Shown here: piece by piece, positions 388 to 22,660 of the stretch
Numbering within the stretch: the first letter of the stretch is position 1
How the letters are laid out: every line of letters begins with the position of its first letter
Assembly (NCBI GenBank): GCA_964511025.1
Contig: CAZEDK010000002.1
Coordinates: 1 to 59,147 of the forward strand
From: an uncultured Candidatus Peribacteria bacterium
GTDB taxonomy: Bacteria > Patescibacteriota > Gracilibacteria > UBA1369 > GWF2-33-10
Reading direction: 5' to 3'
Length of the DNA stretch: 59,147 bases
Translations under genes and position numbers: made by a program
Notes under the pieces: model-generated
What the model saw: only the letters and a program-made list of their open reading frames with translations
Told to the model about the DNA's origin: nothing
Databases searched by the model: none

Positions 388-2490
388 TTATTTTACCTTG
401 TAGATAACAGCAGTGCCGAGATTGGGAATACTATAATAATGGACTAGTTCTAGGAAAGAAGCTTTTTGGTAATCTTGAATCAAATTACCTGATTGAAGGG
501 CAGAAATAAAGATATGAGTTACATTGGATTTTTTTAGAATATTGTAAGCGCCTGGCTGTAAAATGTTATTGTAAATGTCAAGTAATTTATTTTTATTTAT
601 TGATTCTCCACCTTTAATTTTCAAATGAAACTCTGCATTTATATCCAATGGTCTGCTACTAATTGCTCTTCTTTCGGCTATAATTGGAGTCCAATCTGTT
701 GTCCAGTATTCTACCCCATTCGCAAGTTTAATGGGGTTTCTAGGATTAAGAATCAAACAATTGTCAAAAGTTGTATTATTACAAAACCACTGAAGTGCTT
801 GATAATCAGTTTCCAACAACCATTCAGGATATCGTAAGTAATTTTTATATTCGTAATATTGAAATATAGACAAAAAAACTATTGAAATAAATAGAGCACC
901 GAATTTTTTAAATGTTGTAATATTTATAAATTTAACAAACCCAAGAACTGTACTTATTGTATAAGCTGCAGCGATGGGAAAAACAATTGTAAAAGACATC
1001 CAACCTACTGAAAAGGTATTTGGATACAAAAATGGTGTTGTAAAACTACCATTAGCTCCTAAAAACCAGTCCGGCCTCGGTGTAAAATGGAACCACCTAA
1101 ATCCTATAAGACGGTAAACCTTCCAATGTATAATCAGTGCAACCATAATCAAGGCATGTGTACCTAAAAAAACCAATATTTTATCTCTGTATACAAAAAA
1201 GATTCCTATCCCTATAAACGATAAAACAAGGAAAATAGGATTATGCCAGTATTTAAGTGTTGGAATTAAATGAGTCGCATACTGACTGAAAAGATTTTCG
1301 AAGTCTACTGTCTTATAACTGCCACTTGCATTCATTAGGGATGGGATAACAATAATAATACATGTAAAAATAGAAACTATTAAAACCGAATAATCTTTAA
1401 AGTAACTTTTGTTTACAGAAATTAAATACAAAAGAAAAAATACTCCAAGAGATATTACAAACCAAAGAAATATATCTGTCTGGCTTAATGCCGACACCGA
1501 AAATACAAATCCGGCTGATATAGCAATAATGGTTGCAAGTTTTCTAGACTTTTCATTTAATGCATGTTGCAAAAGAATTAAAAAACTAGCAATAGAAAGA
1601 TAGCTTAACAGTTCCGTTGTGTTGCCATCGTTATACATTGTTAGATAAGCTTTGTTTAAAGTTAAAATTCCCGCAATAAAAGCCAGTAGCATGTTCCGGT
1701 TAGAAAGAAAATATGCAAGTAAAAAAACTGCTAAGACAAAATAAGCCCCACATACCGCAGTAACGGACATACATTCTTTATAAATTAAAGACATTTTCAT
1801 TTTTGAAAATAATACAACAATTACGTTAAAACAGGGAGGATAATTTATATAAGCTTTTGTTTCATTCAAAAATGGGTAAACAACGGGAAAACCCTGTTTT
1901 TTCATTAAAAGCTGGAGATAACTCGAACCTTGTGCATCAACATCGGGTGGAACATTATTATTGGCCCACATTAAAGAATGCCACAAAAAGGCTATCAATA
2001 AAACAATTACTGGTATACAAATTTCGTTGATATTAATTTCTTTATTTTTAAAACCTATTTTTCTTTTAAACCAGACTAACAGACATATTGGCAATGCAAA
2101 ACCAACAACAAAATAAACCACTGGATTCATTGGAACCCTCAAAAAAGCCATTACTCCCCATAGTCCTGCAGAAAAAGGTAGCCCGAAACACAAGCTCAAA
2201 ATAACCGTTTCTGATATGTTCTTTTCTGAAAATAACAGACGTGAGATAAGTATCCCTAAAGGAAATGTAAAAATTACAATCAGCAATAGAGAAATACTAT
2301 TAGAATAGACATTTTTAGTAGTAAAAGAAAAAAATATTATTAATACAATCTCAATAAAAATTGTTGTGAATAAAATATAACTGTAAATACTTAAATGGCA
2401 TAAATTCTTTTTTTGTTCAATAAGGTTGTTTTTTGGTTGATTTAAAAGAGTATTATTCGACATCTTTGACCTCAACTGATGTGTGCCCAA
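388..2490 (-). CDS. Large polytopic membrane protein with a hydrophilic C-terminal domain; GT-C-like glycosyltransferase or polymerase candidate
   Basis: 700-aa ORF. Roughly the first 540 aa are consecutive hydrophobic helices, followed by a soluble tail of about 150 aa. No family motif was recognised with certainty. The start may be Met10 (2463), which would reduce the overlap with the upstream gene. Confidence 0.6.
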   Translation of the reverse strand: MGTHQLRSKMSNNTLLNQPKNNLIEQKKNLCHLSIYSYILFTTIFIEIVLIIFFSFTTKNVYSNSISLLLIVIFTFPLGILISRLLFSEKNISETVILSLCFGLPFSAGLWGVMAFLRVPMNPVVYFVVGFALPICLLVWFKRKIGFKNKEININEICIPVIVLLIAFLWHSLMWANNNVPPDVDAQGSSYLQLLMKKQGFPVVYPFLNETKAYINYPPCFNVIVVLFSKMKMSLIYKECMSVTAVCGAYFVLAVFLLAYFLSNRNMLLAFIAGILTLNKAYLTMYNDGNTTELLSYLSIASFLILLQHALNEKSRKLATIIAISAGFVFSVSALSQTDIFLWFVISLGVFFLLYLISVNKSYFKDYSVLIVSIFTCIIIVIPSLMNASGSYKTVDFENLFSQYATHLIPTLKYWHNPIFLVLSFIGIGIFFVYRDKILVFLGTHALIMVALIIHWKVYRLIGFRWFHFTPRPDWFLGANGSFTTPFLYPNTFSVGWMSFTIVFPIAAAYTISTVLGFVKFINITTFKKFGALFISIVFLSIFQYYEYKNYLRYPEWLLETDYQALQWFCNNTTFDNCLILNPRNPIKLANGVEYWTTDWTPIIAERRAISSRPLDINAEFHLKIKGGESINKNKLLDIYNNILQPGAYNILKKSNVTHIFISALQSGNLIQDYQKASFLELVHYYSIPNLGTAVIYKVK

Positions 2491-3307
2491 ACTGTTGGAA
2501 TCTGTTAGTTTTCAATTTAACATCACATGGATTGCAATGTCCAAACACATCACAACCACGGAATTTATCTTCTATCACAAAATTTTCATCAAGTATGTTA
2601 CCTATAAACTTTCTACCTTCATAGAGGTCGCTGTGGCATCTGTAAACATCCCCGTTACTTCCAATGATGAGCTCGGTTGTCTTGCATGATACTTTTTTAA
2701 CAAACTTTTTGTCACACGCTCCTTCATAACGATAAGTACCGTACATCACTCCATTATATTCACCAAGAAACTCTTTTGTACGAAAATCTATTCCTAAAGA
2801 GCTACAATATTCCTTCGCCCTTAATATCTCAGCTTCTTGTGCCGGATGCATAACACCCCAAATCCCAATACTAAAACCATTATTTTGGAATTTAAGAACT
2901 TTCTTAACCAACGGTTCAAGTTGCGTGGTTTCAGGATGATAACTAACTCTGATAGAAGCATATGGAGATTTCCTTTTAATCCTGTTTGGATTTACATTAC
3001 GTATAAACGCGTCTTCATCAAATTGTAAATTAGTCAGGATATCAATATTAAGTTCCGATTTTATATTGTTTAATATATGAATAAAATCCTTATGAAGACT
3101 TGGTTCTCCTCCCTGAAGAGAAATGGGAAGATCGTCCCTGGAGACAATTCTATTTAATCCCTTTACCCAGTCTTTTCCAGAAAGGTGTTTTTTTATGAAC
3201 TTACCTTCTTCGAAATAATTAATGCAATAACTGCACTTAAGATTACAGGTAAGGGATAAAAAAACAGCAATGTAATTATAAGATTGTGGAATAATAATAG
3301 GTTTCAT
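2453..3307 (-). CDS. Small radical SAM enzyme with a Cys-rich (twitch/SPASM-like) C-terminus
   Basis: 284 aa. Motifs: LTCNLKCSYCINYF (CX3CX2C), SLQGGEPSLH, and the C-terminal cysteines ...VYRCHSD...GCDVFGHCNPCDV. Confidence 0.8.
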   Translation of the reverse strand: MKPIIIPQSYNYIAVFLSLTCNLKCSYCINYFEEGKFIKKHLSGKDWVKGLNRIVSRDDLPISLQGGEPSLHKDFIHILNNIKSELNIDILTNLQFDEDAFIRNVNPNRIKRKSPYASIRVSYHPETTQLEPLVKKVLKFQNNGFSIGIWGVMHPAQEAEILRAKEYCSSLGIDFRTKEFLGEYNGVMYGTYRYEGACDKKFVKKVSCKTTELIIGSNGDVYRCHSDLYEGRKFIGNILDENFVIEDKFRGCDVFGHCNPCDVKLKTNRFQQFGHTSVEVKDVE

Positions 3308-3419
3308 TATTAAGATTAATGATTTGCTACTGTTTTTATTAGTTGAGACTTTGGCATTACATAAAAATTTTATTTAGCGTTGAAATACCGGAGTTAACAA
3401 ATAAAAAGGAGATGCATAT

Positions 3420-4799
3420 TTATTTGTTTAAATCCATTAACAAATTTTTATAATATATGAATTCGCTATAATCGAAACTATTTGTGTTGTTTCGTTTCAT
3501 CCCAAAAATCTCGGTAAATTTCCTTGTTATCAATTTTAAATTTCGTCGAAAATTAACAACATTAAAAATATTCTGGTTTAATAATATTTTAATAATTCGC
3601 TGGATATTCACCACGTCGTATTCATTTTGAGTTATAAGATTATTCTTAGCCCCTAAACCAACTTGAAATTTAGATATGCCATCTATCATCTCAAGTAAAA
3701 ATTTCTTTTGTGGATTACACCAGATTGCCATCCACATGTACTGGAACCAGTCGTTACTACCCTTAGGGTGAATTACTGCAATTCTAAACAAATTTTCGGC
3801 ATATTCTTTTATCTTTTTTGGGTCTCGTTCTTCAGCAGGAATTCTTTCAACACAAACTTCTAACCAATTCCTCCCAGATGCATCAACACTTGTAATATCA
3901 GGATTAATTCGAAAGTACTTAAGTTTCCAATAACTATCAAGTACTGGGCAAATAAGGTTACCGTCATCATAACTTGTTTCACAATATATTTGTTTATTAA
4001 CTAAAAAATAATTCCAACTATAAAACATTTTAACATTAATAATGCCTTGAATAAAATTCATCCAGAATTTTACGGCTTCCCCTGTCATTTCCTGTAAACT
4101 GCCCGTGTTTATTAAAAGATCAAAATCTTCCTGAGCTATTGTATGACAAAACTGAACAGGTACAAAAACAAAATCATATTTGTCTAAATTCACTCTATTG
4201 TTATCTTTTATATATATAGTTTTTGCATCAGGAAAATTTGTAGCTATAAAAACCTGTGCAAAAAAAAGCGATTCAGGCAGATCAATCATTACATAATGTA
4301 TAGATCGGTTCATAATCTTAAATATTCTTGCTAATCCCCCATACCCACTACCAATTTCTATAATTCTTTTAGGCCCAAATTCATAATCAAATGTATATAC
4401 ACTTCTTAAATAAATATTTACATGTGTTAAAAAAATATTACTAAATTTAAACCCATCAATAATTTCACTGGTTCTTTTGTCGGAATAAATCGATTCTTCT
4501 AAACCATTTTCAAACGCCTTTTTAAAATTAAACCATGGGAAAAGACGCTCCAATTCTCTCATTTTGAAATCAATTACACCTCTAACATTCCCTCTGCGAT
4601 GATCAAATCCTACTTTGGAACTATTTTGCGCATACAATATTGCCTCATCGCAGGTTTTGAAATTAATTATATCTCTACTAATATTTCTCCTATTGCTATC
4701 CCACCATGTACTTATTGTAAAATCATTCGGATACTCAATTTTCTCAACATCCTTATAACAACTTATTGCAAATTTTAAAATGTTATTATACTTAGTCAT
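3420..4799 (-). CDS. Class I SAM-dependent methyltransferase-like protein (putative sugar O-methyltransferase)
   Basis: 459 aa. A Gly-rich SAM-binding motif (IIEIGSGYGGLARIF) is followed by an acidic beta-2 end (VMIDLPE). The long N- and C-terminal extensions have unknown function. Confidence 0.55.
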   Translation of the reverse strand: MTKYNNILKFAISCYKDVEKIEYPNDFTISTWWDSNRRNISRDIINFKTCDEAILYAQNSSKVGFDHRRGNVRGVIDFKMRELERLFPWFNFKKAFENGLEESIYSDKRTSEIIDGFKFSNIFLTHVNIYLRSVYTFDYEFGPKRIIEIGSGYGGLARIFKIMNRSIHYVMIDLPESLFFAQVFIATNFPDAKTIYIKDNNRVNLDKYDFVFVPVQFCHTIAQEDFDLLINTGSLQEMTGEAVKFWMNFIQGIINVKMFYSWNYFLVNKQIYCETSYDDGNLICPVLDSYWKLKYFRINPDITSVDASGRNWLEVCVERIPAEERDPKKIKEYAENLFRIAVIHPKGSNDWFQYMWMAIWCNPQKKFLLEMIDGISKFQVGLGAKNNLITQNEYDVVNIQRIIKILLNQNIFNVVNFRRNLKLITRKFTEIFGMKRNNTNSFDYSEFIYYKNLLMDLNK

Positions 4800-4917
4800 T
4801 TTTGATTCTCTAATACATCCTTCTTGATCTGGATTTTCTCAATTCTAAACTATGAATTATTTCCCCTTACCTTCATTTTGATAAAGTTTTCTTTGTGAAT
4901 CAACTCTTAATCATACT

Positions 4918-6321
4918 TTAGATAAGTTCCAGAACCAATTTGCATAATGTTTCACTTAATTGTGCCATTAAAAAGCCTTTTTTTCGCATGTTAACAAAGA
5001 ATTCATTATTCTCAATGGCATTATCAATCTTTTCTAATAGCTTTCTCACCATAGGGTCTCTAGGTAAAAAGCGCACAGGAATACGAATTATTTCTGATTT
5101 AGTACCATTTATTGACGGTATAGTATTACACTTGTATTCGACAAGATCCCAGTGATCATAATACCAAGAACCAGCATAAGCCTTAATAAACGGTTCAACT
5201 GTAACTGTATTTCTTTTGTTTTGTAAAATTTTTAAACAAAATTCTGCTGTTCTCTTCACATCGTCTACTTCTGCCTCAGGCTGGCAAAGGATAATATTAA
5301 TATGAACTGGAAGATCAACGGCACGAGTAATTTCAAGAAAATTATCTACATCTTTTACGCGTTGTCCTTTACGAATCTTTTTCAATAGCGAATCTGAATA
5401 CGACTCTATACCACAAGAAAGCTTTCGGAAACCGGCACGTTTCATTACATCCAGCACTTCTGCATCAAAGTCAGTAATCCTGGAAGAAGCAACATATGTT
5501 ACTTTAATGCCTTCTTTAATTGCAAGATTACACCACTCTATAGTGTTTTGGCGGTTATGACATGCATTGTCATCGTGGAAATAGATTGTCTTAGTTTCTG
5601 GAACCTGCGTCAGTACCCTTTTTAAAATGTTTACTAATTCTCTGGGAGGCAGAGTAACCACTTTTGTTCCTGCTGGAACTGCCTGCCGGATGAAACGTGT
5701 AGTTGAACAAAACTTGCATCCTTGAGGGCAATAATTAGTAATATAAAGATTTATACAATTCGTGCTGACCACATCACCACTCGTAACAGTGGAATTACGC
5801 TTCCAATATTCCTTTATTGGTAATTTACTTAGATCTACGCTTGTCGCCCTAACGAGTTCGTCCATTGTTAAAACAGTTGAAAAGGAAAAGTCTTTCGCTA
5901 ATGTACTCGGTGGAAGTTTTAAGTGAACACGCCCTTCTAAAAAGTATTCCAATGCTTTTTCACCCTCTCCCATTATGATGTAGTCAGTCACATCTAGATC
6001 AAGTAATTGTTGATAATTGCAAGTTGCTTCAACACCACCCAACACAATCATTGTATGAGGAAAAAGTTTTCTGGCATAACGCATCAATGCAACGTCATTA
6101 TGAAGGTTATCTTTCGTAGGAGAAAACCCAATAACATCATAGTTCCCGCAATTTTCTAAATAAGAAACAGGATCTTCTACATTAGGATCGAGTACATTTA
6201 CATCGTGTTTATCTTTTAGCCAATGCTGGATGCGGTAAAGCCCCATCGGTGGAGAGAGATAATATCCAAGGACTTTTTTATCATTAGTCCACGAAGAAAC
6301 TAGCAAAAGACGCTTTCTCAT
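4918..6321 (-). CDS. Class B (B12-binding domain) radical SAM enzyme
   Basis: 467 aa. The N-terminal region looks Rossmann-like (RLLLVSS...GLYRIQHWL...DVIGFS...IVLGGVEAT), followed by YITNYCPQGCKFCST (CX3CX2C). Confidence 0.8.
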   Translation of the reverse strand: MRKRLLLVSSWTNDKKVLGYYLSPPMGLYRIQHWLKDKHDVNVLDPNVEDPVSYLENCGNYDVIGFSPTKDNLHNDVALMRYARKLFPHTMIVLGGVEATCNYQQLLDLDVTDYIIMGEGEKALEYFLEGRVHLKLPPSTLAKDFSFSTVLTMDELVRATSVDLSKLPIKEYWKRNSTVTSGDVVSTNCINLYITNYCPQGCKFCSTTRFIRQAVPAGTKVVTLPPRELVNILKRVLTQVPETKTIYFHDDNACHNRQNTIEWCNLAIKEGIKVTYVASSRITDFDAEVLDVMKRAGFRKLSCGIESYSDSLLKKIRKGQRVKDVDNFLEITRAVDLPVHINIILCQPEAEVDDVKRTAEFCLKILQNKRNTVTVEPFIKAYAGSWYYDHWDLVEYKCNTIPSINGTKSEIIRIPVRFLPRDPMVRKLLEKIDNAIENNEFFVNMRKKGFLMAQLSETLCKLVLELI

Positions 6322-6349
6322 ATATTGTTATCCTCCTATTTTATCTTGC

Positions 6350-7138
6350 TTAAGAACAAATCTTGTTCGTCAAAATTCGCTCTAGTTTTTTCCTTCTAAA
6401 TGCTGTAACTGAAGATGCATCCAACTCTTTTGGTTGTTCAGAAAACAACAACTCCGCTAGTAACCTACTCATATTTAATGAAAGGTTTAGTATGCTTTTA
6501 ATACTAAAAGCTTTAGATTTTCCAGATGCCCGTGGACGTGTATAATACGGCACCTCAGCATACAGGTAGCCACGGCGAACAGTCTTACATAAAAGTTCAG
6601 TTTGATAAAAAAACCCGTGACTTTTCAGCTTAATATCTTTAAGAATAGAACGTCTATATAATACCAGTCCATTTGAGTGATGAACATTAAGTCCAAATAA
6701 AATTCTTATCATAAATGTATAAATACCCGACATTAACCTGCGGAACGGAGAACGAACTGTCTCGTTTACAATAAAGGGCACAACAATATCAACATTTGAA
6801 AGCTCATGAAGGTACAAGAGCATTTCTGCAGGGAGCATCTCATTATCTCCTGGATATAATACCACTGCCTCGTTATTCGCCCTTGACACACCCTCCCAAA
6901 AAGAATAACCTATTCCTTTGGGAGTATCATGATGAATTACAAAGATTCTTTTATCTGTTTTTCGTAGTTCCTCCGCAATATTTCCAGTATTGTCAGTACT
7001 TCCATCGTTAACTATAATAAGTTCTCCATTAACATTAGCTTCGTCCAGCGCCCTAATAGTACACTCAACTGCCGCCTTAATATTACCTTCTTCATTAAGT
7101 GCAGGCATAACAATTGTTATATTGACATTAAAATTCAT
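6350..7138 (-). CDS. GT2 glycosyltransferase, Dpm1-like (polyprenyl-phosphate sugar synthase type), no TM tail
   Basis: 262 aa. Motifs: ITIVMPALNEEGNI, LIIVNDGSTDNT, and a DxD-like YPGDNEM. Confidence 0.75.
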   Translation of the reverse strand: MNFNVNITIVMPALNEEGNIKAAVECTIRALDEANVNGELIIVNDGSTDNTGNIAEELRKTDKRIFVIHHDTPKGIGYSFWEGVSRANNEAVVLYPGDNEMLPAEMLLYLHELSNVDIVVPFIVNETVRSPFRRLMSGIYTFMIRILFGLNVHHSNGLVLYRRSILKDIKLKSHGFFYQTELLCKTVRRGYLYAEVPYYTRPRASGKSKAFSIKSILNLSLNMSRLLAELLFSEQPKELDASSVTAFRRKKLERILTNKICS

Positions 7139-7177
7139 ATTAAAGTTTTGCTATGAAGAATACTACACAAATATTTG

Positions 7178-8281
7178 TTAAATGAAATTTATATGCATCG
7201 GCGGGTTAACATCTTCTCTTTTTAAAATGGCATTTTCGTGCTTTAAAGTCCATAAACACTCATTTACTTTATGTTGTAAGCATAAGGAACCGCACATTGT
7301 TCTTGCGTCAAATTTTTCTGACGCAATTAAATTAATTACTTCCCAATAACGATCACCCTGCCAGATTTTTTTAAATGGAGTATCAACAATGTTGCCAATA
7401 TGATACTTCTTATATCTATCATTAAAAAGCATACCGCATGGTACTACTAATCCTGACCCTGAAAACTGCATAATAAAAGGAGGTCCATAACAACGACTAT
7501 AATTACGTTTCCCACCACTTAAGATTTTAGACCACTTAGCCTTTACAAGATATTTGTCATCTGAATATGTTTCTGCCTCCTTTAATATATCCACCATGTC
7601 ATTGTATTTTGAATAATCTACACCAAGGGTTCCCATTTCATCATCACTACAATGCTTTATAACCAGATAATCAACGCCTAGTTTCTTTCCAAGATTTGAT
7701 AAAGGAATAACCTGATCTACCACCTCCGGCAACAGTATCATTTGTAAACCAATCGTTACATCAAGATTTTTCTCATGCTTTATTTTTACACATGTCTTTA
7801 TTGTATTTATAATCTTAAAATAACATTCTTTTTTACAAATGTGAATGGCAGCGTATTTGTCAGCTTCTGCGGCTGAAATATTAAATCTGAGATATGTCAA
7901 AGCCGGCAGGATATCCTCCAATCGTTCTTCTTTCAGAAGGTAGCCATTTGTACCCAAAGCCATATCTAAGCCGTTTGACTTTCCCCTTAAAATAGCGTCA
8001 TACAAATGGGGAGAGCAAGTACTCTCGCCATCGCTTACAAAACTGATTGCTTTTACCCCAATTTCTGCTGCATCATCAAGAAACCTGAAAATAACATCTT
8101 TGGACATACGCTTCTCATCATTCGTCTGAAGCATACCATAACAATAAATACATCTGTATGTGCATCTTCGAGTCAAAGCACAGTCAATAGTAATGGGCGC
8201 AATCCTCTCGCCTCTTAACCACGTATCAACTCGGTTTTTATGCCAGGCAAGCTTATGCCCATCAAGAACTATCTCGCCCAT
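7178..8281 (-). CDS. Radical SAM enzyme (twitch/SPASM-like), paralogue of 9705..10823
   Basis: 367 aa. Motifs: ALTRRCTYRCIYCYG (CX3CX2C) and C-terminal cysteines (CYGPP...VVPCG...CGSLCLQ). It shares N-terminal HKL.xH..RV..WL.GE.I.PI and a C-terminal H(I/V)NFI end with the 372-aa paralogue. Confidence 0.8.
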   Translation of the reverse strand: MGEIVLDGHKLAWHKNRVDTWLRGERIAPITIDCALTRRCTYRCIYCYGMLQTNDEKRMSKDVIFRFLDDAAEIGVKAISFVSDGESTCSPHLYDAILRGKSNGLDMALGTNGYLLKEERLEDILPALTYLRFNISAAEADKYAAIHICKKECYFKIINTIKTCVKIKHEKNLDVTIGLQMILLPEVVDQVIPLSNLGKKLGVDYLVIKHCSDDEMGTLGVDYSKYNDMVDILKEAETYSDDKYLVKAKWSKILSGGKRNYSRCYGPPFIMQFSGSGLVVPCGMLFNDRYKKYHIGNIVDTPFKKIWQGDRYWEVINLIASEKFDARTMCGSLCLQHKVNECLWTLKHENAILKREDVNPPMHINFI

Positions 8282-8359
8282 TTGTTCTCCCCATTTCTAT
8301 CATCTTTTTATTTACTATAACATTTTATTCCACAAGCTATATTCTTTTGCCAGTTATAC

Positions 8360-8857
8360 TCACACCCTGAAGTATCCTGGTTTTGGATCAGTAATCCAAT
8401 CTTTCACCATTTTATTAAGATCCTTTTCCCCCCCTTCATAAGGATCAAACACCTTCATATTTATTAATTGCATAATTTTCTTGTCGTCTTCGCCACAGCA
8501 GTGCGAAGGTCCCAAAAATTTGAAGTAATCGTTTACTCCAGTCGCAATAAATTTAACATTCAAGTTTTGCATCACAACATCATTTCGTATCTGTTCGATA
8601 GCACGAAAAACAAGGAAATTCACAATTGAATACACAACCGGGATCAAACCTGTCATTGCCATACCGGCGGCAATACCAACAGTTCCTTGTTCCATCATAC
8701 CCATATTAAAAATCTTCTCAGGAAATTTTTCCTTAAATTTATCAGTAACTCCAAATCCCATATCACAAACAAGTAAAACAATCCTCTTATCTCTTTTAGC
8801 ATAAGGTATAATGCTGTTTATAATATCCTTCCTATAATTTTCACCATTATCACTCAT
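8360..8857 (-). CDS. Transketolase-family Pyr (pyrimidine-binding) domain subunit, lacking the usual C-terminal domain
   Basis: 165 aa. Motifs: FNMGMMEQGTVGIAAGMAMTGLIPVVYSIVNFLVFRAIEQIRNDV and GPSHCCGEDD. The ORF ends right after the Pyr domain (PGYFRV). An 8-nt overlap couples it to the PP-domain subunit gene upstream. Confidence 0.75.
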   Translation of the reverse strand: MSDNGENYRKDIINSIIPYAKRDKRIVLLVCDMGFGVTDKFKEKFPEKIFNMGMMEQGTVGIAAGMAMTGLIPVVYSIVNFLVFRAIEQIRNDVVMQNLNVKFIATGVNDYFKFLGPSHCCGEDDKKIMQLINMKVFDPYEGGEKDLNKMVKDWITDPKPGYFRV

Positions 8858-9665
8858 AACAGTTTCCCATTTTTAATTCATCTGCTGTAGGAATACGGAA
8901 ATGAAATTTTGGAACATTTTCCATACAATTTAATCCATATCCCTTAATAGTGTTTGCTATTAATACTTGAGGTGCAAAGAGGTTTTTCTGATTTTTTACC
9001 CATTTTTCAACAATGGAAATAATCCTTTTAATATCATGTCCATCGCAGGTATTTACCTCAAATCCAAAAGCCTTCATTTTCCTCTGTAAATCATCCCTTC
9101 TCTCTTCCACAGTTAATACGTTCTTCAAAAAATCCATAGCTTGTAATGTATTGTGATCAATGATTACTGTTAAATTCGACAACTTATGTTTGACAGCAAA
9201 TTGAATCGCCTCCCAATTTGATCCTTCTTGCATTTCACCGTCACCAACAATACAATAAATTCTGTATGTTTTTTTCTGTAATTTTGCCCCAAAAGCTACA
9301 CCAACGGCCATTGGTAATCCATGACCAAGTGAACCACAACTTGCTTCTAAACCGTTTTTTACGCGTCGTTCCAAACATCCTGATAAAAAACTCCCTTTGT
9401 AGAATTTCTCCCAATCATGACATTTAATATATCCTATATCAGCAAGAATTGCATAAAGACCATAGCATCCATGTGCTTTGGAAAATATAAGACGATCCCT
9501 CTCCTCCCATTGTGGGTAGCTTGAAAGACGCATTATTTTGTAATAAAGTGCAATCAAAATATCAACGCAGGAAAGCGAAGGAGCAATGTGTCCGGCTCCA
9601 TTTCGAATGGCGATCTCTACTAAATTTTTGCGTGTTTGATTTGCTTTTTTACATAGACTGACCAT
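8850..9665 (-). CDS. Transketolase-family N-terminal (ThDP / PP-domain) subunit
   Basis: 271 aa. Motifs: HIAPSLSCVDIL, SKAHG, GSLGHGLP, and the ThDP motif GDGEMQEGSNWEA...NLTVIIDHN. Confidence 0.85.
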   Translation of the reverse strand: MVSLCKKANQTRKNLVEIAIRNGAGHIAPSLSCVDILIALYYKIMRLSSYPQWEERDRLIFSKAHGCYGLYAILADIGYIKCHDWEKFYKGSFLSGCLERRVKNGLEASCGSLGHGLPMAVGVAFGAKLQKKTYRIYCIVGDGEMQEGSNWEAIQFAVKHKLSNLTVIIDHNTLQAMDFLKNVLTVEERRDDLQRKMKAFGFEVNTCDGHDIKRIISIVEKWVKNQKNLFAPQVLIANTIKGYGLNCMENVPKFHFRIPTADELKMGNCYE

Positions 9666-9704
9666 TTAATATCATTTATTGTTTGCTTAAAATTATCAAA
9701 AAAG

Positions 9705-10823
9705 TTAGATAAAATTAACATGTTCAGGTGGATGCTTTAATTGCCACAGATATTGATTTATTTCGTCCATCCTGCAATTTACCCGACATTGGTTTGTATC
9801 AAGTCTATCTTTCGCCCAACTAATAGACCTTAGCCTTTTTTCTCCTTCCCAAATCTCCTTAAATGTATTTTTATAAATATTACCGTAGATAAAACGCTCA
9901 TCACCGAGATAAGCGCTGCATCCCCAAACCGTACCACCAGCATCTATATAAGACCAGAAAGGAAGGGCAAGGCATTGCTTATAACTCCGTTGGCCCTCAT
10001 CCCATTTTTTCATTGTGCTAACGCGGAATATTACGCTAAAGCTATTATTATTAAAAGTGCTTAACTTATCGGCTAAATGAAGATAATTACTGTATTTTAT
10101 ATCCTTATACCTGGTCGTTCTGCTTAACGGATGTTGTGAATACGGCTTTACAACCAAATAGTCCATACCTATATCTTTAGCCTGTCGAGCTAAAAGCTCT
10201 GTCTCATGCCAGTTTTCGGGAAGAAGTATAAGTTGCATACCTAAGGTACATTTATATCCTCTATCTCGCCTTTCTTTCGCTGCATAAGACATATTTTCTA
10301 TTACCCTATCCAAGTTATCAGGATTTGTTTTGTGAATCTTAGCATAGGTCTCTTTCGTTGCCCCATTTATGCTTACTTTTATCCAAGTAATATTTTCTAA
10401 AGTGCTCTCAATAAGGTCTTTTTTTAAAAGTACTCCGTTCGTTGTTATGGCAACATCAATACCTACTTTTTTTGTGCGGTTGATTATTTCACCAATATCT
10501 TTATGTAGCAATGGCTCACCTTCACCAGCGTACATAATACTTTTTAAACCGAGTGATGCCATTTCGGATAATCTATCGTTAAGTACCTTTTTATCTAAAA
10601 ATCGTGGTTGATATTCCATAAAATCCAACGCACAATATGTACACCGATGATTACACATGCCAGAGGGCGATATTTCCATATAAATTGGGTAGATATTCTC
10701 TCCTTCTAACCAATTATATACTCTAGAGACATGATATATCAATTTATGACTATCTATTTGGTATTTATCCATAAAAACATGCTGGAAATATCCTTTAAAA
10801 TTTAACATGGTTTCTTCCAGCAT
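9705..10823 (-). CDS. Radical SAM enzyme (twitch/SPASM-like), paralogue of 7178..8281
   Basis: 372 aa. Motifs: SGMCNHRCTYCALD (CX3CX2C), AGEGEPLLH, C-terminal CLALP...WGCS...CRVNCR, and an HVNFI end. Confidence 0.8.
   Translation of the reverse strand: MLEETMLNFKGYFQHVFMDKYQIDSHKLIYHVSRVYNWLEGENIYPIYMEISPSGMCNHRCTYCALDFMEYQPRFLDKKVLNDRLSEMASLGLKSIMYAGEGEPLLHKDIGEIINRTKKVGIDVAITTNGVLLKKDLIESTLENITWIKVSINGATKETYAKIHKTNPDNLDRVIENMSYAAKERRDRGYKCTLGMQLILLPENWHETELLARQAKDIGMDYLVVKPYSQHPLSRTTRYKDIKYSNYLHLADKLSTFNNNSFSVIFRVSTMKKWDEGQRSYKQCLALPFWSYIDAGGTVWGCSAYLGDERFIYGNIYKNTFKEIWEGEKRLRSISWAKDRLDTNQCRVNCRMDEINQYLWQLKHPPEHVNFI
10688..10793. repeat. Copy A of a duplicated segment of about 105 bp (5' coding end of the radical SAM gene 9705..10823). 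Copy B is at about 13217..13322.
   Basis: A 29-nt perfect match ggtatttatccataaaaacatgctggaaa lies at 10760-10788 and 13289-13317. A 16-nt perfect match gagacatgatatatca lies at 10726-10741 and 13256-13271. The flanks are similar. Confidence 0.8.
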
Positions 10824-11621
10824 TGAACATGCATAGTCGTAAATTCTTACTGGTAAAACCTAGCATTCTGGGAATATTTACTATGCTCTTTTCAAAAAAA
10901 AGAAAGAATGTGGTAAAAATAACTCTTTTAACACGAATAGTTGATACATAAAACATATTGATTTATACTTCAAAAAGGAATTAAAAGACTCAAGAATAGG
11001 CTTCCGACTATTCAACGGATTTATTCAGACCTAGAGCTCAAAAGGTAGCAGAAAAGATTGACCGATACTATCAACTAGAATGCCTTCTCTCAACAAAAAA
11101 CATTATGAGAAACTTAACAAATGGATTTAAACATGTTTTTAAGATGAAATAAAAGTCCAATTAACTCCAACATTATCTGACAATTGGCACTTAGAGGAAA
11201 ACAAGCTTGGGTTCGATCCGTAGCAGTGACAAGACAGAATGTAAATCTCTTTGAATTATTGAATCTTTTAATAAAAAAAGTCCATTACTGGAAAGCTCTT
11301 CAATAAATATCCTTCAGTTTCAGTATTCCTAATTTACCTTCTAGTACATTATTAAAGTGATCTTTAGAAATAATCTGCAACAGAATTATAATGCATAGAA
11401 ACTATTCCTACAGAAAAAAACCAAAATAAGATTCCTGCTTCTGACTTTATATATTTTCCAATATAAATCCAATCGAAAAACTCTTGTAATCCCAGTTTTG
11501 AACAGATCCAAGTCTCAATAGTATGAAATCATTCCCATTTGAGAAAAACATTCTTATGTTTAAAGAGAGACACAATGAAAGAGCTGTATTATATATACAT
11601 ATTAATTTTGTTTGCTTTTAT

Positions 11622-13100
11622 TTAGCTAGGAACATTCCGTAAAAAATAAGTTTGAACTGTCACCTTAAGCCTTTTTAAAAAAGAAATAGATGCTACTGAT
11701 TTTAATAAATATGAAAAATAATAATACGACTTCATTTTTGATATAAGTAGTTTAATCAGCAAAACATATAAAGGTTTATGTCCTTTATATATATAATAAT
11801 CAAACATTGTAAAACACCTTTGTATTTCTTTTTCGCTAAATCCAGGTAGATTTAAAACAGCTTTTGTCCTTTCTACTTCATCGAAAAAAGATTCACCAAT
11901 CAGACCTTGTGCTTTACAAAAAGAATAAAGCTCAGTTCCTGGATATGGATAGAAAATAGAAGTCATATGACGGTTCGGCTGGCATTTCCTGTTCATTTCA
12001 ACAGTTTCCATAAAATCATTAAAGGTTTCTCCGGGAATTCCGATAAGATTAAAGAAGCTTACTTCTATTCCATACTTCTTTGCCTGTTGAACCGTTCTTA
12101 TTACATCCTCATTTGAATAATTCCTCTTCAACACTTCTCTTCGTATCCTTTCACTACCAGATTCTAATCCTATGTTAATAAAACGAAAATTACTCCTCTT
12201 AAAGACTGCAAAAAGTTCTGAATAATCTGCATTTTGTGTAATTCTTAAATTTACCCCAAAAGATAACGGCTTTTTTAGATGAGAATTTAATTTTTCTAAG
12301 TTATAACACAATTCAAAAGCCCATTTTCTATTAACACCTATAGTTTCAACTTCAAAATATATTTCTCTCACTTTAGGAAAAGTGCTTATGACTTCATTTA
12401 TTTCTTGCATCACATTATCAACAGATCTCATCCTAACGTATTTATCAGATGCTATTTTTCTTAATGCATGATTAGAACAGTACGTACATAGATGAGGACA
12501 TCCACGTCCCAAAAGAATAGGATATTGAAAATCTTTATTATCGGGGTCTATCCATTCAATCCACATTTTTCTATCTGGGAAAGGCAAGCTATCGATATCC
12601 TGCAAAAATGGTCTTGTAGGATTTTTTACAACATCAGAATTGTGCTTAATCCACATATTAAAGATGGAAAAACGCGTTTCCCCTTGTCCTATGTTTGCAA
12701 CAAGTTCAGAAACAGGGAACTCACCTTCCCCAACGCATAAGGCATCAAAACTATGTTTAATAACTTCTTCAGGATTTAAAGAAACATGTGGCCCTCCTGC
12801 TACTAGATAAATGTTTGGATACTTCCTCTTTATGTAATCTGCAATAGATATAATAAATTTGAACTCCGTAGCTACAATGGTAAAACACATTATGTCTGGG
12901 TAAAACTTTCTTAAATATTCATTTATTCTGGTTTCATTTTGCTTCCCTAATAACTTACTAAGAACAATTAACTTTGTATTATGTCCATGTTTTTTAAGAA
13001 ACGATGATATATAAGATATTCCAAATTGCATTTCCATAGGAGTCTGCAAGGGATACTTAGGTGACCATATATCCTTTGAATATACAAAGAGAATATTCAC
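11622..13100 (-). CDS. Class B (B12-binding domain) radical SAM enzyme
   Basis: 492 aa with an apparent GTG start. The N-terminal region is ILFVYS...GISYISSFLKKHGH...IMCFT...LVAGGPHVS, followed by LGRGCPHLCTYCSN (CX3CX2C). Confidence 0.8.
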   Translation of the reverse strand: MNILFVYSKDIWSPKYPLQTPMEMQFGISYISSFLKKHGHNTKLIVLSKLLGKQNETRINEYLRKFYPDIMCFTIVATEFKFIISIADYIKRKYPNIYLVAGGPHVSLNPEEVIKHSFDALCVGEGEFPVSELVANIGQGETRFSIFNMWIKHNSDVVKNPTRPFLQDIDSLPFPDRKMWIEWIDPDNKDFQYPILLGRGCPHLCTYCSNHALRKIASDKYVRMRSVDNVMQEINEVISTFPKVREIYFEVETIGVNRKWAFELCYNLEKLNSHLKKPLSFGVNLRITQNADYSELFAVFKRSNFRFINIGLESGSERIRREVLKRNYSNEDVIRTVQQAKKYGIEVSFFNLIGIPGETFNDFMETVEMNRKCQPNRHMTSIFYPYPGTELYSFCKAQGLIGESFFDEVERTKAVLNLPGFSEKEIQRCFTMFDYYIYKGHKPLYVLLIKLLISKMKSYYYFSYLLKSVASISFLKRLKVTVQTYFLRNVPS

Positions 13101-13351
13101 TGCTTTATTACCTTCTCGGTAAGTTGTATTTCAAACAGCAACAATTTAAAAATCCCAAGAAAGTTTCTTATATTCTTCATATTATTTTTAATAGATCTTC
13201 TATTCAAAAGATAGACCGGATAAACATTTTCTCCTTTCAACCAATATGCATTTTGGAGACATGATATATCATTTTTTGTTACCCATTCGGTATTTATCCA
13301 TAAAAACATGCTGGAAACATCTCCTGCAAAACATATGTGTTTATAAATCAA
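13097..13351 (-). pseudogene. Decayed 5' fragment of a third copy of the 9705-type radical SAM gene
   Basis: The 84-aa ORF keeps ...YWLKGENVYPVYL (compare NWLEGENIYPIYM in the 372-aa protein). Relative to copy A it has two 1-nt indels, lacks the CX3CX2C motif, and ends in unrelated sequence. The nucleotide identity blocks are listed under the repeat feature. Confidence 0.7.
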
Positions 13352-13419
13352 TGCTCAATATATCAATTTCTATTTATCTCGATAATATGAATTGAATCGA
13401 AGTCAAATAAGCATCCATT

Positions 13420-14346
13420 TCACATTATACTTTCAATCACCTCAAAAACTCTTTCGGGCTCTATATAATTCATGCATGATTTGTCTTGTATACATCGAGG
13501 GCTCAAACAAGGTATACAATTATAACCAGCATTTGATTCTAATTTTATGCCGTTTGATATACAAATTTCTGAAGCAAGTGTAGGACCAAAAAATGCAATT
13601 ATCTTTTTGTGTAGCGCATTAGCTACATGCAAACCTAAACTGTCGTTGGTTATAACAACTTTGCAAGAATTTACCCACTCAAAATATTCTTCAAGGTTTT
13701 GCAAACCTTGCTGCCAAGAAATTGTATATTTATTGCCGATAAGCCTTTCAAGTTCCTTCCAATATTCCATAGACCAAGCTTTAGTGGGCCATTTCGTACC
13801 CACATCATAATTAAAGCCTATATCATAAATAATGTTAGATTGGGGTTTGTATCCCAAAATGCAACACTCACCTTGCCATTTAGCGCCACCAACCATTTCA
13901 TACAGAATTTCTTCCCAATATCTCCTTGTCTTTTTCTTATATTCGGTATCCATACAAATTTCCAATACATGTTGAGAGCCTTCATAAGCAAGTGCAACAC
14001 CATTTTCAGGATCAAATCTAAATCCATACCGACGCCAAGCATTAATAGTATCTGAAAAGGCACATAGTCCAGGTACCTTTTCAAGGTTGATGAGTGTATC
14101 AAATCGTTCTGATTGTAATTGCAATACTGAGCTAAGATCATAAAAAATTGTTCTGTGAATATATGGATTCTCTTTTAATAAGGGAAACGCCTTCTCGTCT
14201 ACCAACCAAGTAACATGAGCATTTTTATAAAGATGTAATAATACAGTACTTCTAAGTACATCCCCCAAGCTTGTTACCTTTCCTATTTCGCCATCTAATG
14301 TTTCAGAATATCCCAGTTTAATAATCAAAACTTTTTCTTTATGCAT
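13420..14346 (-). CDS. GT9-family glycosyltransferase (heptosyltransferase-like)
   Basis: 308 aa. The N-terminus is VLIIKLGYSETLDGEIGKVTSLGDVLRSTVLL. The C-terminal GT9 signature is VVITNDSLGLHVANALHKKIIAFFGPT. Confidence 0.75.
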   Translation of the reverse strand: MHKEKVLIIKLGYSETLDGEIGKVTSLGDVLRSTVLLHLYKNAHVTWLVDEKAFPLLKENPYIHRTIFYDLSSVLQLQSERFDTLINLEKVPGLCAFSDTINAWRRYGFRFDPENGVALAYEGSQHVLEICMDTEYKKKTRRYWEEILYEMVGGAKWQGECCILGYKPQSNIIYDIGFNYDVGTKWPTKAWSMEYWKELERLIGNKYTISWQQGLQNLEEYFEWVNSCKVVITNDSLGLHVANALHKKIIAFFGPTLASEICISNGIKLESNAGYNCIPCLSPRCIQDKSCMNYIEPERVFEVIESIM

Positions 14347-15478
14347 TTAATTCTTCCATAACACCCAATGTTTTTATAGCAGTCTCTTCCCAGCTAAAGG
14401 AACTTGCTCTTCTTTTCGAGTTTTGTTTTAATTTCTCTAATAAAATATTATTATGTAACACTGTTTCTATCTTTTTAGCAATCTCATTTGGATTATAAGG
14501 ATCAAAATATATTGCAGCATCTTGACAAATTTCTGGCATCGGCTCTATATTTGAAGATAAGATAGGCGCCCCACAAGACATAGCTTCAATCAAAATATTC
14601 GGACAATTCTCACATGTTGACGGATATACAAATAATTGACAAAGTACATAAAAATATGGTAATTCCTCGTAAGGAACATGACCTAAAAAGATAACACGGT
14701 CTTCTATTTTATTACTTAATACAACGGTTTTTAGCAATTTTGTATATTGTTCGTCAAAACTTTTTCCAATAAGAACAAGATTCAGATTATGATCAATTTT
14801 GCTTATAATCAGTGAAAAAGCATGAATCAGTTCAAGAAAGTTTTTGTACTTATAAATGTTTGAAACATATAGAATAAATTTGTTAAGGTTGTATTTCTGT
14901 TTAATTTCATTAAGTATGTCGGAATTTAAATCCGGTTTGAACAGTAAGTTTTTACCATGATAAATAAGTGAAGTTCTATGTGCCGGTAATTTATAATAAT
15001 GACTTAATTTCTTCTTTGCTTTATCTGAAATAAATATAATTTTTTTAGCTTTTCTAATAGATAAACTAGTTAATATTCTCAAAAAATTAAATTTCATCCA
15101 ATAATAAAGATTTTGTTTCTTTATCATATTACTATCAAAAGGTGCGACAGTTTGTATCATAATTATTGTTGGAAAAGGGCAAAAAATTAACCCAATATTA
15201 GCAGGACAATAAAGAATATTTGCCTTAATTTTTTTTAGTATATAACATAAGAAAAACTGCTCCCAAAAAAGGCGAAAAAATATCGAAATGCTAGGAATTT
15301 TGAAAGAGAGTATATTGAAGTTTTTATAATTTGTATCTAGTATTTTCTCACCTCTTTTCGTAGTGATAATAATATATTCATTTCTTTTATCTATTTCTGA
15401 CAAATACCTGAATAGCTGATTTAAATAAGTAACACCTCCTCCCGCAACAGCAGATAAAGCATTTATTGCAATACGCAT
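14339..15478 (-). CDS. GT4-family (GT-B, retaining) glycosyltransferase
   Basis: 379 aa. The C-terminal EX7E region is PSTCENCPNILIEAMSCGAPILSSNIEPMPEI. Confidence 0.8.
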   Translation of the reverse strand: MRIAINALSAVAGGGVTYLNQLFRYLSEIDKRNEYIIITTKRGEKILDTNYKNFNILSFKIPSISIFFRLFWEQFFLCYILKKIKANILYCPANIGLIFCPFPTIIMIQTVAPFDSNMIKKQNLYYWMKFNFLRILTSLSIRKAKKIIFISDKAKKKLSHYYKLPAHRTSLIYHGKNLLFKPDLNSDILNEIKQKYNLNKFILYVSNIYKYKNFLELIHAFSLIISKIDHNLNLVLIGKSFDEQYTKLLKTVVLSNKIEDRVIFLGHVPYEELPYFYVLCQLFVYPSTCENCPNILIEAMSCGAPILSSNIEPMPEICQDAAIYFDPYNPNEIAKKIETVLHNNILLEKLKQNSKRRASSFSWEETAIKTLGVMEELNA

Positions 15479-15532
15479 ATTCGATAGATTCTTTAGACCT
15501 TCATTTCTTAAATCTTTAGATTATATACCCTT

Positions 15533-16324
15533 TTATTGGTATGTACGTTTCCGCCATAGATAACCTCTAAACACCGATACGGCTTTTTCTCCAAAATTAT
15601 TTAAGATTATTCTTCTGGCAAAATGTCGTATAAAATTGTTTGTGTAACTAAGGGGTTCTTTCACTGCCGATGATAGTTTGTGCGCGCTACGAACTCTCCA
15701 ACCATCGAGTGTAAGTGTTGAACTACTGTTACCACCTACTCGCATACGAGTAAGAATATCTTCAAGTATAATACACGGTATATTAGCCTTTATGCACCTC
15801 AGCAAAAAATCATAATCAGCACCAATGTTATAGCGAGTATTAAAAAGACCTACACATTCATATACACTACGTCGTACAAAAGTAGCAGGATGTTGAATAG
15901 TCATTCCTTTATATAGATGAAGTATACTCGATTTTAAAATAATTTTATTCCCTTTGGATGAGTTTTCCCATGCCTCTATAGAACCGGAAACAATGCCTAC
16001 ATCAGGATTGCGTACAAATACAGAAACAACTCGCTCAAGGATATTTGGTAACCATGTGTCATCGCTATTAAGAATAGCAACGATTTCGCCAGTTGCACGA
16101 CTAATACCTTTATTCATAGCGTCGTATATCCCATTATCTGGCTCAGACCTCCACCCAGACATCGCCATCGGATATTTTGCAACTATATCTTTAGTGTCGT
16201 CTGTAGACTCCCCATCTTGTATAATAATCTGAAAATTGGTGTAATTTTGATTTATTATACTTTTTATCGTATCTTCGACTGTTTTTGCACTATTAAAAGT
16301 AGGTACGATTATACTAACTTTCAT
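15533..16324 (-). CDS. GT2-family glycosyltransferase
   Basis: 263 aa. Motifs: VSIIVPTFNSAKTVEDTIKSIINQNY, IIIQDGESTDDT, and ILNSDD (DxD). Confidence 0.8.
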   Translation of the reverse strand: MKVSIIVPTFNSAKTVEDTIKSIINQNYTNFQIIIQDGESTDDTKDIVAKYPMAMSGWRSEPDNGIYDAMNKGISRATGEIVAILNSDDTWLPNILERVVSVFVRNPDVGIVSGSIEAWENSSKGNKIILKSSILHLYKGMTIQHPATFVRRSVYECVGLFNTRYNIGADYDFLLRCIKANIPCIILEDILTRMRVGGNSSSTLTLDGWRVRSAHKLSSAVKEPLSYTNNFIRHFARRIILNNFGEKAVSVFRGYLWRKRTYQ

Positions 16325-22657: not shown

Positions 22658-22660
22658 TAC

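Follow-up and report, generated by a model that had tools for sequence, protein, structure and literature searches.

In the biosynthesis of yersiniose and avilamycin, a two-carbon (C2) unit bound to thiamine diphosphate (ThDP) is added to the carbonyl group of a nucleoside diphosphate (NDP)-sugar by YerE and by AviB1/AviB2, respectively: The former is a flavoenzyme of the acetolactate synthase type, the latter are homologues of the alpha and beta chains of pyruvate dehydrogenase E1 (PDH-E1). In both pathways the carbonyl group originates from an NAD-dependent 4,6-dehydratase and not from a radical S-adenosylmethionine (SAM) enzyme. The octose of the lincosamides is built along a route in which, as outlined in PMC5854111, LmbR and LmbN act first and are followed by a kinase, a phosphatase, and a nucleotidyltransferase. 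Here we analyze a four-gene cassette on a contig of an uncultured Candidatus Peribacteria bacterium (CAZEDK010000002.1), in which two paralogous radical SAM (rSAM) genes flank the two genes of a split and truncated transketolase (TK)-like ThDP enzyme; the whole analyzed stretch of 59,147 nucleotides (nt) is referred to as the window. The cassette is real and is found again in loci for surface glycans across numerous bacterial phyla and in some archaea, usually next to heptose-activation genes, and it probably builds an undescribed modified sugar.

The cassette and its recurrence in other genomes

As anticipated by the original prediction, four open reading frames (ORFs) follow each other in the order rSAM, PP subunit, Pyr subunit, rSAM, all of them on the minus strand:

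9705..10772 (ORF to 10823), minus strand: rSAM-A, a radical SAM enzyme with one predicted auxiliary twitch-like Fe-S site; Pfam Radical_SAM and SPASM
8850..9665, minus strand: PP (ThDP-binding) subunit of the split TK-like enzyme; Pfam Transketolase_N
8360..8857, minus strand: Pyr subunit of the split TK-like enzyme, truncated; Pfam Transket_pyr only
7178..8281, minus strand: rSAM-B, a paralogue of rSAM-A with the same four-cysteine auxiliary site; Pfam Radical_SAM and SPASM

The underlying Pfam matches have E-values of 1e-22 (Radical_SAM) and 2e-7 (SPASM) for ORF 9705..10823, 6e-29 (Transketolase_N) for the PP subunit, 3e-17 (Transket_pyr) for the Pyr subunit, which has no match to Pfam Transketolase_C, and 5e-15 (Radical_SAM) and 1e-8 (SPASM) for rSAM-B. 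The PP and Pyr genes overlap by the expected 8 nt (ATGAGTGA). The two rSAMs are 30% identical from end to end (E 1e-58), and their alignment covers both the N-terminal signature HKLxxHxxRVxxWLxGExIxPI and the C-terminal signature LWxLKH...HxNFI that had been ascribed to them in common; their C-termini, described as cysteine-rich, contain four invariant cysteines each. An rSAM gene had been placed at 9705..10823, where an ORF of this extent does exist, but the start of rSAM-A is most likely Met18 at 10772, because the 120 homologues listed are all about 355 residues long and cover 95% of the ORF.

Homologues of the PP subunit with 69–87% identity are encoded in metagenome-assembled genomes (MAGs) named Planctomycetota, Brocadia, Nitrospirota, and Levybacteria. 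Scanning one genome per species yielded a sample of 80 loci, onto which the window proteins were mapped by tblastn; the layout rSAM-A–TKN–short TKPyr–(GT2)–rSAM-B, in which TKN and TKPyr denote the PP and Pyr subunits and GT2 a family 2 glycosyltransferase, is found in about 35 loci. The co-occurrence counts are based on 37 distinct loci with a short Pyr subunit (~161–225 residues, or a fusion), redundant contigs being left out: rSAM-A is present in 28 and rSAM-B in 20 of the 37, an HldE-like gene in 21, a GmhA-like gene in 20, a 262-residue GT2 in 11, and a family 9 glycosyltransferase (GT9) as well as a small rSAM protein in 5 each. In contrast, 0 of 38 ordinary split-TK loci (C subunit of 302–393 residues) have cassette neighbours, with the exception of the Helicobacter cinaedi locus, in which a fused cassette-type TK is present as well. 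The search for the rSAM/TK arrangement in other glycan loci, as proposed at the outset, has thus shown it to be conserved there, and with its recurrence across dozens of unrelated genomes it goes far beyond what chance would produce.

The carriers include Levybacteria, Nitrospirota, Nanoarchaeia, Deltaproteobacteria, Fibrobacter, Lentisphaeria, Oligoflexia, Omnitrophota, Planctomycetales, Elusimicrobia, Lambdaproteobacteria, and Colwellia, and a distant clade comprises Campylobacterota (Sulfurimonas, Aliarcobacter, Sulfuricurvum, H. cinaedi) together with Pseudoalteromonas luteoviolacea. Three loci (L004, L005, and L007) share a core of CTP_transf (160 residues), CTP_transf+PfkB (510), SIS (192), rSAM (355), TK-N, and TK-Pyr (165), to which L004 adds a GT2 (262), an rSAM (367), and a YfhO membrane protein; L002, the closest relative of the window, contains GT4, GT9, rSAM, TK-N, and TK-Pyr. 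By its distribution, the module appears to be horizontally mobile and to have spread across bacterial phyla, bacteria of the candidate phyla radiation (CPR), and DPANN archaea. Cassette proteins 70–80% identical to those of the window occur in a Nanoarchaeia MAG (L012) and a Levybacteria MAG (L010), and this DPANN/CPR likeness implies either a recent cross-domain transfer or a mis-binning of contigs. In H. cinaedi CCUG 18818 (L075, 9947..13247), the PP subunit and the short Pyr subunit form a single fusion protein of 485 residues, directly downstream of which lies an ordinary split TK pair (311 and 303 residues); the upstream rSAM of this locus is apparently split into two ORFs (8161..8640 and 8637..9248).

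The transketolase-like enzyme and its radical SAM partners

In TK, H100 and H473 hold the C1-OH of the donor, and D469 reads the C2-OH of the acceptor; the position of H100 is variable in DXS, which uses pyruvate. The best match of the PP subunit in the Protein Data Bank (PDB) is the split TK 6yak from C. hydrogenoformans (E 1e-50), and a second split-TK structure, 6yaj, is matched by the ThDP enzyme with an E-value of 1e-17. We aligned the family to E. coli TktA, for which 16 landmark residues served to verify the numbering. Invariant in the PP family are GHIxPSLS, SKAHG, G-Cys97-xE, GSLGHG, GDGEMQEGS, DxNxLQA, and FHF. The ThDP/Mg2+ motif GDG-X(25-30)-N is present in the form of an invariant GDGEMQEGS ... 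DHN, aligned to D155 and N185 of the E. coli enzyme. Moreover, the cofactor-activating glutamate E411 (MEQ) and the catalytic histidines H26 (GHI), H261 (FHF), and H473 (PSH) are kept, as are the equivalents of H66 in the PP subunit and of R358 and R520 in the Pyr subunit, R358 being replaced by lysine in the distant clade. At the position of H100 (GHP[ED]), however, stands Cys97, invariant in 28/28 close homologues and also conserved in the Campylobacterota clade, whereas all ordinary split TKs sampled keep GHP. Further substrate residues are changed in the Pyr subunit: S385 to Gly/Phe, H461 to Gly, and D469 to Leu. Judged by this alignment, the ThDP-binding and core catalytic residues, on which the original prediction hinges, are intact, whereas the donor and acceptor pockets do not look like those of a transketolase.

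The Pyr subunit, which lacks a TK_C domain, terminates with ...GYFRV directly behind the Pyr domain; short Pyr subunits of this kind are specific to cassette loci. At 50% clustering, the short Pyr family is reduced to 11 representatives with E <= 1e-30 among 1.84 billion proteins; it is compact, strongly constrained, and horizontally spread. Because the C-terminal domain is missing and cysteine takes the place of the donor histidine, glycine that of His461, and leucine that of Asp469, the enzyme is not, by its sequence, a canonical transketolase, and the replacements of H100 and D469 suggest a non-canonical donor or acceptor. The transfer of a ketol (glycolaldehyde) unit, as initially assumed, is not assured in view of these differences. 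We also considered an Fe-S cluster in the TK-like enzyme and rejected it: Many cysteines are conserved in the main clade, but the Campylobacterota clade shares only Cys97 among them.

Both flanking enzymes belong to the radical SAM superfamily: PF04055 scores above its cut-off in each, and the motif CX3CX2C is invariant (C57/C61/C64 in rSAM-A, ORF numbering; C40/C44/C47 in rSAM-B). Also invariant are the auxiliary cysteines C284/C302/C346/C350 in rSAM-A and C264/C282/C330/C334 in rSAM-B, with the spacing CX17C ... CX3C. A full SPASM domain with two auxiliary clusters (CX9-15GX4C ... CX2CX5CX3C ... C) was rejected, given that only these four cysteines are invariant in both families. Despite a Pfam SPASM score above cut-off, each rSAM is thus predicted to carry one auxiliary cluster of the twitch type. 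Homologues of rSAM-A are 66–89% identical across phyla and are annotated only as "radical SAM protein"; those of rSAM-B, 75–93% identical from Planctomycetota to Nanoarchaeia, bear generic names only.

Sequence searches of the PDB match rSAM-A to BlsE, viperin-like enzymes, MoaA, AbmM, and DesII, and give a single weak match, PqqE, for rSAM-B. We modeled both proteins with AlphaFold (mean predicted local distance difference test score, pLDDT, 78 and predicted template modeling score, pTM, 0.83 for rSAM-A; 70 and 0.74 for rSAM-B). In both cases the best structural match is DesII, with E 6e-16 and TMq 0.64 for rSAM-A (8hzv) and E 1e-9 and a template modeling (TM) score of ~0.6 for rSAM-B, followed by SuiB, viperins, BlsE, anSME, and MoaA. 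Most of these structural neighbours act on nucleotides or nucleotide sugars, and several form a carbonyl group by radical dehydrogenation, deamination, or dehydration. The DesII equivalog TIGR04426 has a cut-off of 450 bits, of which rSAM-A reaches 48.5 and rSAM-B 35.2, and the models place the relationship of both rSAMs to DesII at the level of the fold only.

A proposed pathway and its alternatives

In most other genomes, the cassette is accompanied by genes reminiscent of heptose activation: The SIS protein is best matched by the GmhA model, and the PfkB + cytidylyltransferase-like protein by the HldE model. The SIS gene is frequently adjacent to rSAM-A or overlaps with it, and a GmhB-type HAD phosphatase, sought by its HAD motif, lies near the cassette in 2 of about 30 loci. 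In the Campylobacterota/Pseudoalteromonas clade, an NDP-sugar short-chain dehydrogenase/reductase (SDR) is located between rSAM-A and TK-N, alongside a KdsB-like gene, an HddC-like nucleotidyltransferase, a methyltransferase, and a FemAB-like gene. The company of GmhA-/HldE-like proteins and of GT9 or GT2 suggests a heptose-type substrate. The original prediction had read the genes as a sugar cassette, which agrees with their position in glycan loci, but it had missed the GmhA-like and HldE-like partners and the GT9 or polyprenyl-phosphate GT2 that accompany the cassette elsewhere. In the window, the following neighbours are of relevance:

6350..7138, minus strand: GT2 of the polyprenyl-phosphate glycosyltransferase type, 262 residues; Pfam Glycos_transf_2, E 1e-21
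13420..14346, minus strand: GT9, a glycosyltransferase of the heptosyltransferase family; Pfam Glyco_transf_9
388..2490, minus strand: polytopic membrane protein, 700 residues, with at least 13 hydrophobic segments and a C-terminal soluble domain (hydrophobicity profile)
2453..3307, minus strand: small radical SAM protein, 284 residues; Pfam Radical_SAM

Residues 5–223 of the GT2 align to dolichol-P-mannose synthase (5mlz, E 7e-8) and ArnC (9bhc, E 1e-6), so that its GT-A catalytic domain can be aligned over the full length to these enzymes; no transmembrane segment is predicted in the 262-residue protein. Orthologues with 40–46% identity adjoin TK or rSAM-B in 11 loci, which makes this GT2 a frequent partner of rSAM-B. 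The GT9 is 79% identical to the one that directly precedes rSAM-A in L002 and is likely to transfer the product of the cassette in this genome. The membrane protein closes the window operon and has no Pfam or PDB match; a 31%-identical counterpart exists in L002, and a YfhO protein is similarly placed in L004. Its topology would be compatible with a GT-C-type transferase for a lipid-linked sugar, and together with the GT2 it may, by analogy, form an extracytoplasmic decoration system of the GtrB/GtrC or ArnC/ArnT type. The small rSAM is 85% identical in L002 and stands near the cassette in 5 loci.

From the gene content, paralogy, conservation, and co-occurrence, the pattern of ThDP-binding and catalytic residues, the altered substrate residues, and the fold relationships, we infer a substrate, an order of steps, and a chemistry for each of them: The module would tailor a nucleotide-activated heptose-type sugar by formation of a carbonyl group, formation of a C–C bond, a second radical step, and transfer, a scheme that we consider to have slightly less than an even chance of being correct. 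In most genomes, the divergent GmhA-like isomerase and HldE-like kinase/nucleotidyltransferase encoded beside the cassette would provide this sugar; in the window, it would come from elsewhere in the genome. In the first step, rSAM-A would abstract a hydrogen atom from a carbinol of the sugar and yield a carbonyl group, either via radical dehydrogenation or via diol dehydration. The ThDP enzyme would then add a ThDP-bound two-carbon unit to this carbonyl, thereby extending or branching the chain. The donor in this step may be non-canonical, because the histidine which holds the donor C1-OH in TK is an invariant cysteine here. rSAM-B would perform a second radical tailoring reaction, and transfer of the product would finally fall to the adjacent GT9 or, onto polyprenyl phosphate for extracytoplasmic decoration, to the 262-residue GT2. 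Radical SAM steps on either side of the ThDP-dependent C–C bond formation, as first suggested, remain the most economical reading and would be in line with the DesII-like folds of the rSAMs. More tentatively still, the product could be an undescribed higher-carbon (e.g. nine-carbon) or C2-branched heptose-derived sugar, made by rSAM oxidation or dehydration and ThDP-dependent carboligation.

Several points weigh against this scheme. The acceptors of TK-family enzymes are normally aldehydes of free sugar phosphates rather than nucleotide sugars, and the retained arginine pair would fit a simple sugar phosphate as well as an NDP-sugar. In the related loci, the GmhA-like proteins score 107–118 bits against an NCBIfam equivalog cut-off of 209, and the HldE-like proteins 172–185 bits against one of 521, with a reversed domain order in the latter (nucleotidyltransferase first, kinase second); their substrate may not be sedoheptulose-7-phosphate or a heptose. 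Because the cassette of the window lacks GmhA-like and HldE-like genes in its vicinity, the link to heptose is one by association in other genomes. The connection of the rSAMs to nucleotide sugars comes from the PDB sequence matches of rSAM-A, from the DesII fold match, and from the NDP-sugar SDR between rSAM-A and TKN; the fold likeness (TM ~0.6, 14–16% identity) does not fix the chemistry, and the models are of moderate confidence with their mean pLDDT of 78 and 70.

Alternatively, the ThDP enzyme might act first and join a C2 unit to an aldose phosphate, giving an unusual ketose phosphate such as octulose-8-phosphate or nonulose-9-phosphate, from which the GmhA-/HldE-like enzymes would make an NDP-higher-sugar that the rSAMs tailor afterwards; we regard this TK version of the lincosamide octose route as unlikely, but as an alternative to be taken seriously. 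It would explain why GmhA-/HldE-like genes too divergent for ordinary heptose enzymes flank the cassette in ~20 loci, and it agrees with the SIS gene next to rSAM-A and with the retention of both phosphate-binding arginines of TK. Precedents are found in PMC5854111, which, citing Sasaki et al. 2012, describes the synthesis of octulose-8-phosphate from glucose-6-phosphate together with fructose-6-phosphate by transketolases and of octose 8-phosphate by LmbR/LmbN. However, neither the window cassette nor that of L002 has a GmhA-like or HldE-like gene nearby, and the tightest linkage is that of rSAM-A with TK, not of TK with the isomerase. Moreover, the TK phosphate site has lost His461 and Ser385, the two rSAMs are similar to enzymes of nucleotide sugars, and in one clade an NDP-sugar SDR separates rSAM-A from TKN.

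It is improbable that the ThDP enzyme works in reverse, as a lyase or decarboxylase. rSAM-A would then oxidize C6 in the side chain of the heptose to a terminal ketol (HOCH2-CO-CHOH-), from which a C2 unit is cleaved so that the sugar is shortened or remodeled. Such a ketol is the exact donor motif of transketolases in their established chemistry, and an intact catalytic core with changes at D469 and H461 on the acceptor side would suit this role, but the loss of the histidine that binds the donor C1-OH (H100 to Cys) would be left unexplained, glycan pathways offer no precedent, and a shortened sugar could be obtained more simply.

We give even less credence to a salvage function, in which 5-deoxyribose, derived from the by-product 5'-deoxyadenosine of the eleven rSAMs of the locus, would receive a C2 unit from the TK-like enzyme to become 7-deoxysedoheptulose and be activated by the GmhA-/HldE-like enzymes to an NDP-7-deoxyheptose for the glycan. 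Two phosphate-site residues of TK are lost, the number of rSAM genes is high, and the GmhB-type HAD phosphatase, which a 7-deoxy sugar would not need, is found in only 2 of about 30 loci; in ordinary genomes, however, gmhB is often unlinked from other heptose genes. A transketolase that converts 5-deoxyribose to 7-deoxysedoheptulose is indeed known from Synechococcus (PMC8102628). Against this stand the retained equivalents of Arg358 and Arg520 and the two highly conserved, dedicated rSAM paralogues, to which salvage assigns no role. Least credible of all is an ordinary split transketolase of central metabolism that lies by chance between unrelated rSAM genes, for in spite of its clear TK homology, which includes the solved split TK 6yak, the family is compact, has lost TK_C and carries invariant substrate-residue changes, rSAMs accompany 28/37 short-Pyr loci and 0/38 ordinary ones, and in H. 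cinaedi an ordinary split TK has been retained next to the cassette-type enzyme.

The surrounding locus and comparison with known systems

Upstream of rSAM-A, the window differs from L002, where the GT9 gene is directly followed, with an overlap, by an intact rSAM-A. Three features are found here:

13218..13321, minus strand: 5' fragment of rSAM-A, frameshifted; 86/106 nt shared with 10687..10792
11622..13100, minus strand: B12-binding radical SAM gene between this fragment and the intact rSAM-A; Pfam B12-binding and Radical_SAM
10824..11621: 800-bp gene-free spacer upstream of rSAM-A, with no ORF of at least 80 residues

The ORF 13097..13351 had been taken for a decayed third rSAM copy and thus for a sign of an evolutionarily dynamic cassette. 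In fact, only the 106-nt 5' fragment at 13218..13321 is derived from rSAM-A (E 3e-24); its counterpart 10687..10792 comprises the last 20 nt of the leader and the first ~29 codons of the gene. The fragment carries two frameshifts and needs three frames to be read (FQHVFMDKY / KMIYHVSK / WLKGENVYPVYL), and ORF 13097..13351 is a chance frame that runs across it. It sits directly downstream of the GT9 gene, at the place of the intact rSAM-A in L002. Because the B12-binding rSAM gene and the spacer separate it from the intact rSAM-A, we read the fragment as the scar of a rearrangement or insertion with a short duplication and not as a decayed whole gene; as such, it is no evidence of repeated cassette duplication. 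The spacer has no credible Rfam match and no blastx/blastn similarity to window ORFs or to the related loci compared, and promoter and terminator scans of it remain at shuffle background; it probably belongs to the inserted or rearranged segment.

By its gene content, the whole window of 59 kb (31–38% G+C, almost every gene on the minus strand) is a glycan-biosynthesis locus. It encodes GT2, GT4, and GT9 transferases, Gmd/Fcl, NeuC/NeuB, a CMP-sugar synthetase, an RmlC-like protein, several SDRs, a GHMP kinase (weakly HddA-like), a NanM-like O-methyltransferase, a sulfotransferase, two asparagine-synthase-like proteins, and a MarR_EPS regulator. Eleven radical SAM genes (span 2453..45777) are present, seven of which contain a B12-binding domain and start at the following positions:

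4918, 11622, 21200, 30494, 32096, 42413, 44452: B12-binding radical SAM genes

This number suggests extensive anaerobic C-/O-methylation or other radical tailoring of sugars. The locus also contains a second ThDP system:

49090..50082: PDH-E1 alpha-like
48050..49093: PDH-E1 beta-like

The pair adjoins a 4,6-dehydratase-like SDR (50098..51090), and the region 43852..51090 additionally holds an aldo-keto reductase, another SDR, a B12-binding rSAM, and an RmlC-like epimerase. By analogy, it looks like a deoxysugar module for two-carbon branches of the AviB1/AviB2 type, and because of this module the locus may make two different C2-modified sugars. A nonulosonic-acid module (26108..30174) consists of a UDP-GlcNAc 2-epimerase, NeuB, and a CMP-sugar synthetase, followed by a SPASM rSAM gene (29044..30174) that is unrelated to rSAM-A and rSAM-B. 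The asparagine-synthase-like (glutamine amidotransferase) genes at 17591..19507 and 37128..39053 may amidate sugar carboxylates. In 6 of the related loci, the GT2/rSAM-B pair is followed by a protein of 172–173 residues with three predicted transmembrane segments, which has no counterpart in the window:

L004 13980..14501; L011 6410..6931; L020 12067..12585: three-transmembrane-segment protein, 172–173 residues

A flippase-like or accessory role of this small protein in the membrane is conceivable; no family match was obtained for the 173-residue protein of L004 or for a 199-residue protein of L042.

The superfamilies of the parts, the C2 branching of NDP-sugars by ThDP enzymes (YerE, AviB1/AviB2), and the tailoring of NDP-sugars by rSAMs (DesII) are already known singly. 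The cassette itself is not described in the full-text literature that we searched (transketolase, radical SAM, heptose/GmhA, O-antigen, branched-chain sugar, S-layer, anammox), and in the same literature we found a combination of rSAM and ThDP carboligation chemistry for no glycan pathway. A paper on the S-layer glycan of Kuenenia mentions no such genes and only an unidentified 174-Da sugar, to which no link can be drawn (PMC5088730). Undescribed in this literature are thus the truncated, cysteine-bearing TK subfamily and its combination with paired rSAM paralogues and divergent heptose-activation genes. If the proposal is correct, the cassette would give access, without the need for oxygen, to surface sugars of a new class by uniting two cofactor chemistries, radical SAM and ThDP, on one sugar, and its ThDP enzyme would define a new functional TK-like subfamily, marked by cysteine in place of the donor histidine and by the missing C-terminal domain, which is of possible interest for biocatalytic C–C bond formation. 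Cassette proteins show an unusually high degree of conservation and occur frequently in genomes from groundwater, anammox bacteria, Omnitrophota, and Campylobacterota, where they carry generic annotation only, and with P. luteoviolacea S2607 and H. cinaedi CCUG 18818 there are cultivable carriers in which the proposal is directly testable.

In comparison with described systems, the ThDP enzyme shares its fold with the split-chain TK of C. hydrogenoformans (6yak/6yaj) and with E. coli TktA, and the split into two genes with 6yak. The GDG...N motif, E411, H26, H66, H261, H473, and the two phosphate-binding arginines are kept, whereas TK_C is missing and His100 is changed to Cys, Ser385 to Gly/Phe, His461 to Gly, and Asp469 to Leu; furthermore, the cassette enzyme is linked to radical SAM genes in glycan loci. 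DesII, a TDP-4-amino-4,6-dideoxy-D-glucose deaminase and TDP-sugar dehydrogenase, is the best structural match of both rSAMs, and the sequence-level match to TIGR04426 takes in the region N-terminal to their CX3CX2C motif. Like the role proposed for the rSAMs, its radical chemistry turns a nucleotide sugar into a keto sugar. The window rSAMs differ from it in sequence (14–16% identity; ~48 versus 450 bits), are ~100 residues shorter, and have four invariant C-terminal cysteines for an auxiliary cluster, which DesII is not known to possess. YerE and AviB1/AviB2 follow the same C2-branching logic as the one proposed here, for which the cassette would use an enzyme of the transketolase type instead; an E1 alpha/beta pair comparable to AviB1/AviB2 is present elsewhere in the window (48050..50082). 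With the ADP-/GDP-heptose pathway (GmhA, HldE or HddA/HddC, GmhB; GT9), the cassette loci share the SIS/GmhA-like and HldE-like genes and sometimes GT9, but the scores are well under the equivalog cut-offs, the HldE-like domains are reversed, GmhB is mostly absent, and the GmhA-/HldE-like genes are not near the cassette of the window. The lincosamide octose pathway employs a C3-transferring transaldolase without radical SAM partners and belongs to an actinomycete antibiotic cluster instead of a surface-glycan locus; likewise, however, according to PMC5854111, it unites a C–C bond-forming enzyme of the pentose phosphate type (the transaldolase LmbR) with paralogues of heptose activation (the GmhA-like isomerase LmbN and LmbP/K/O).

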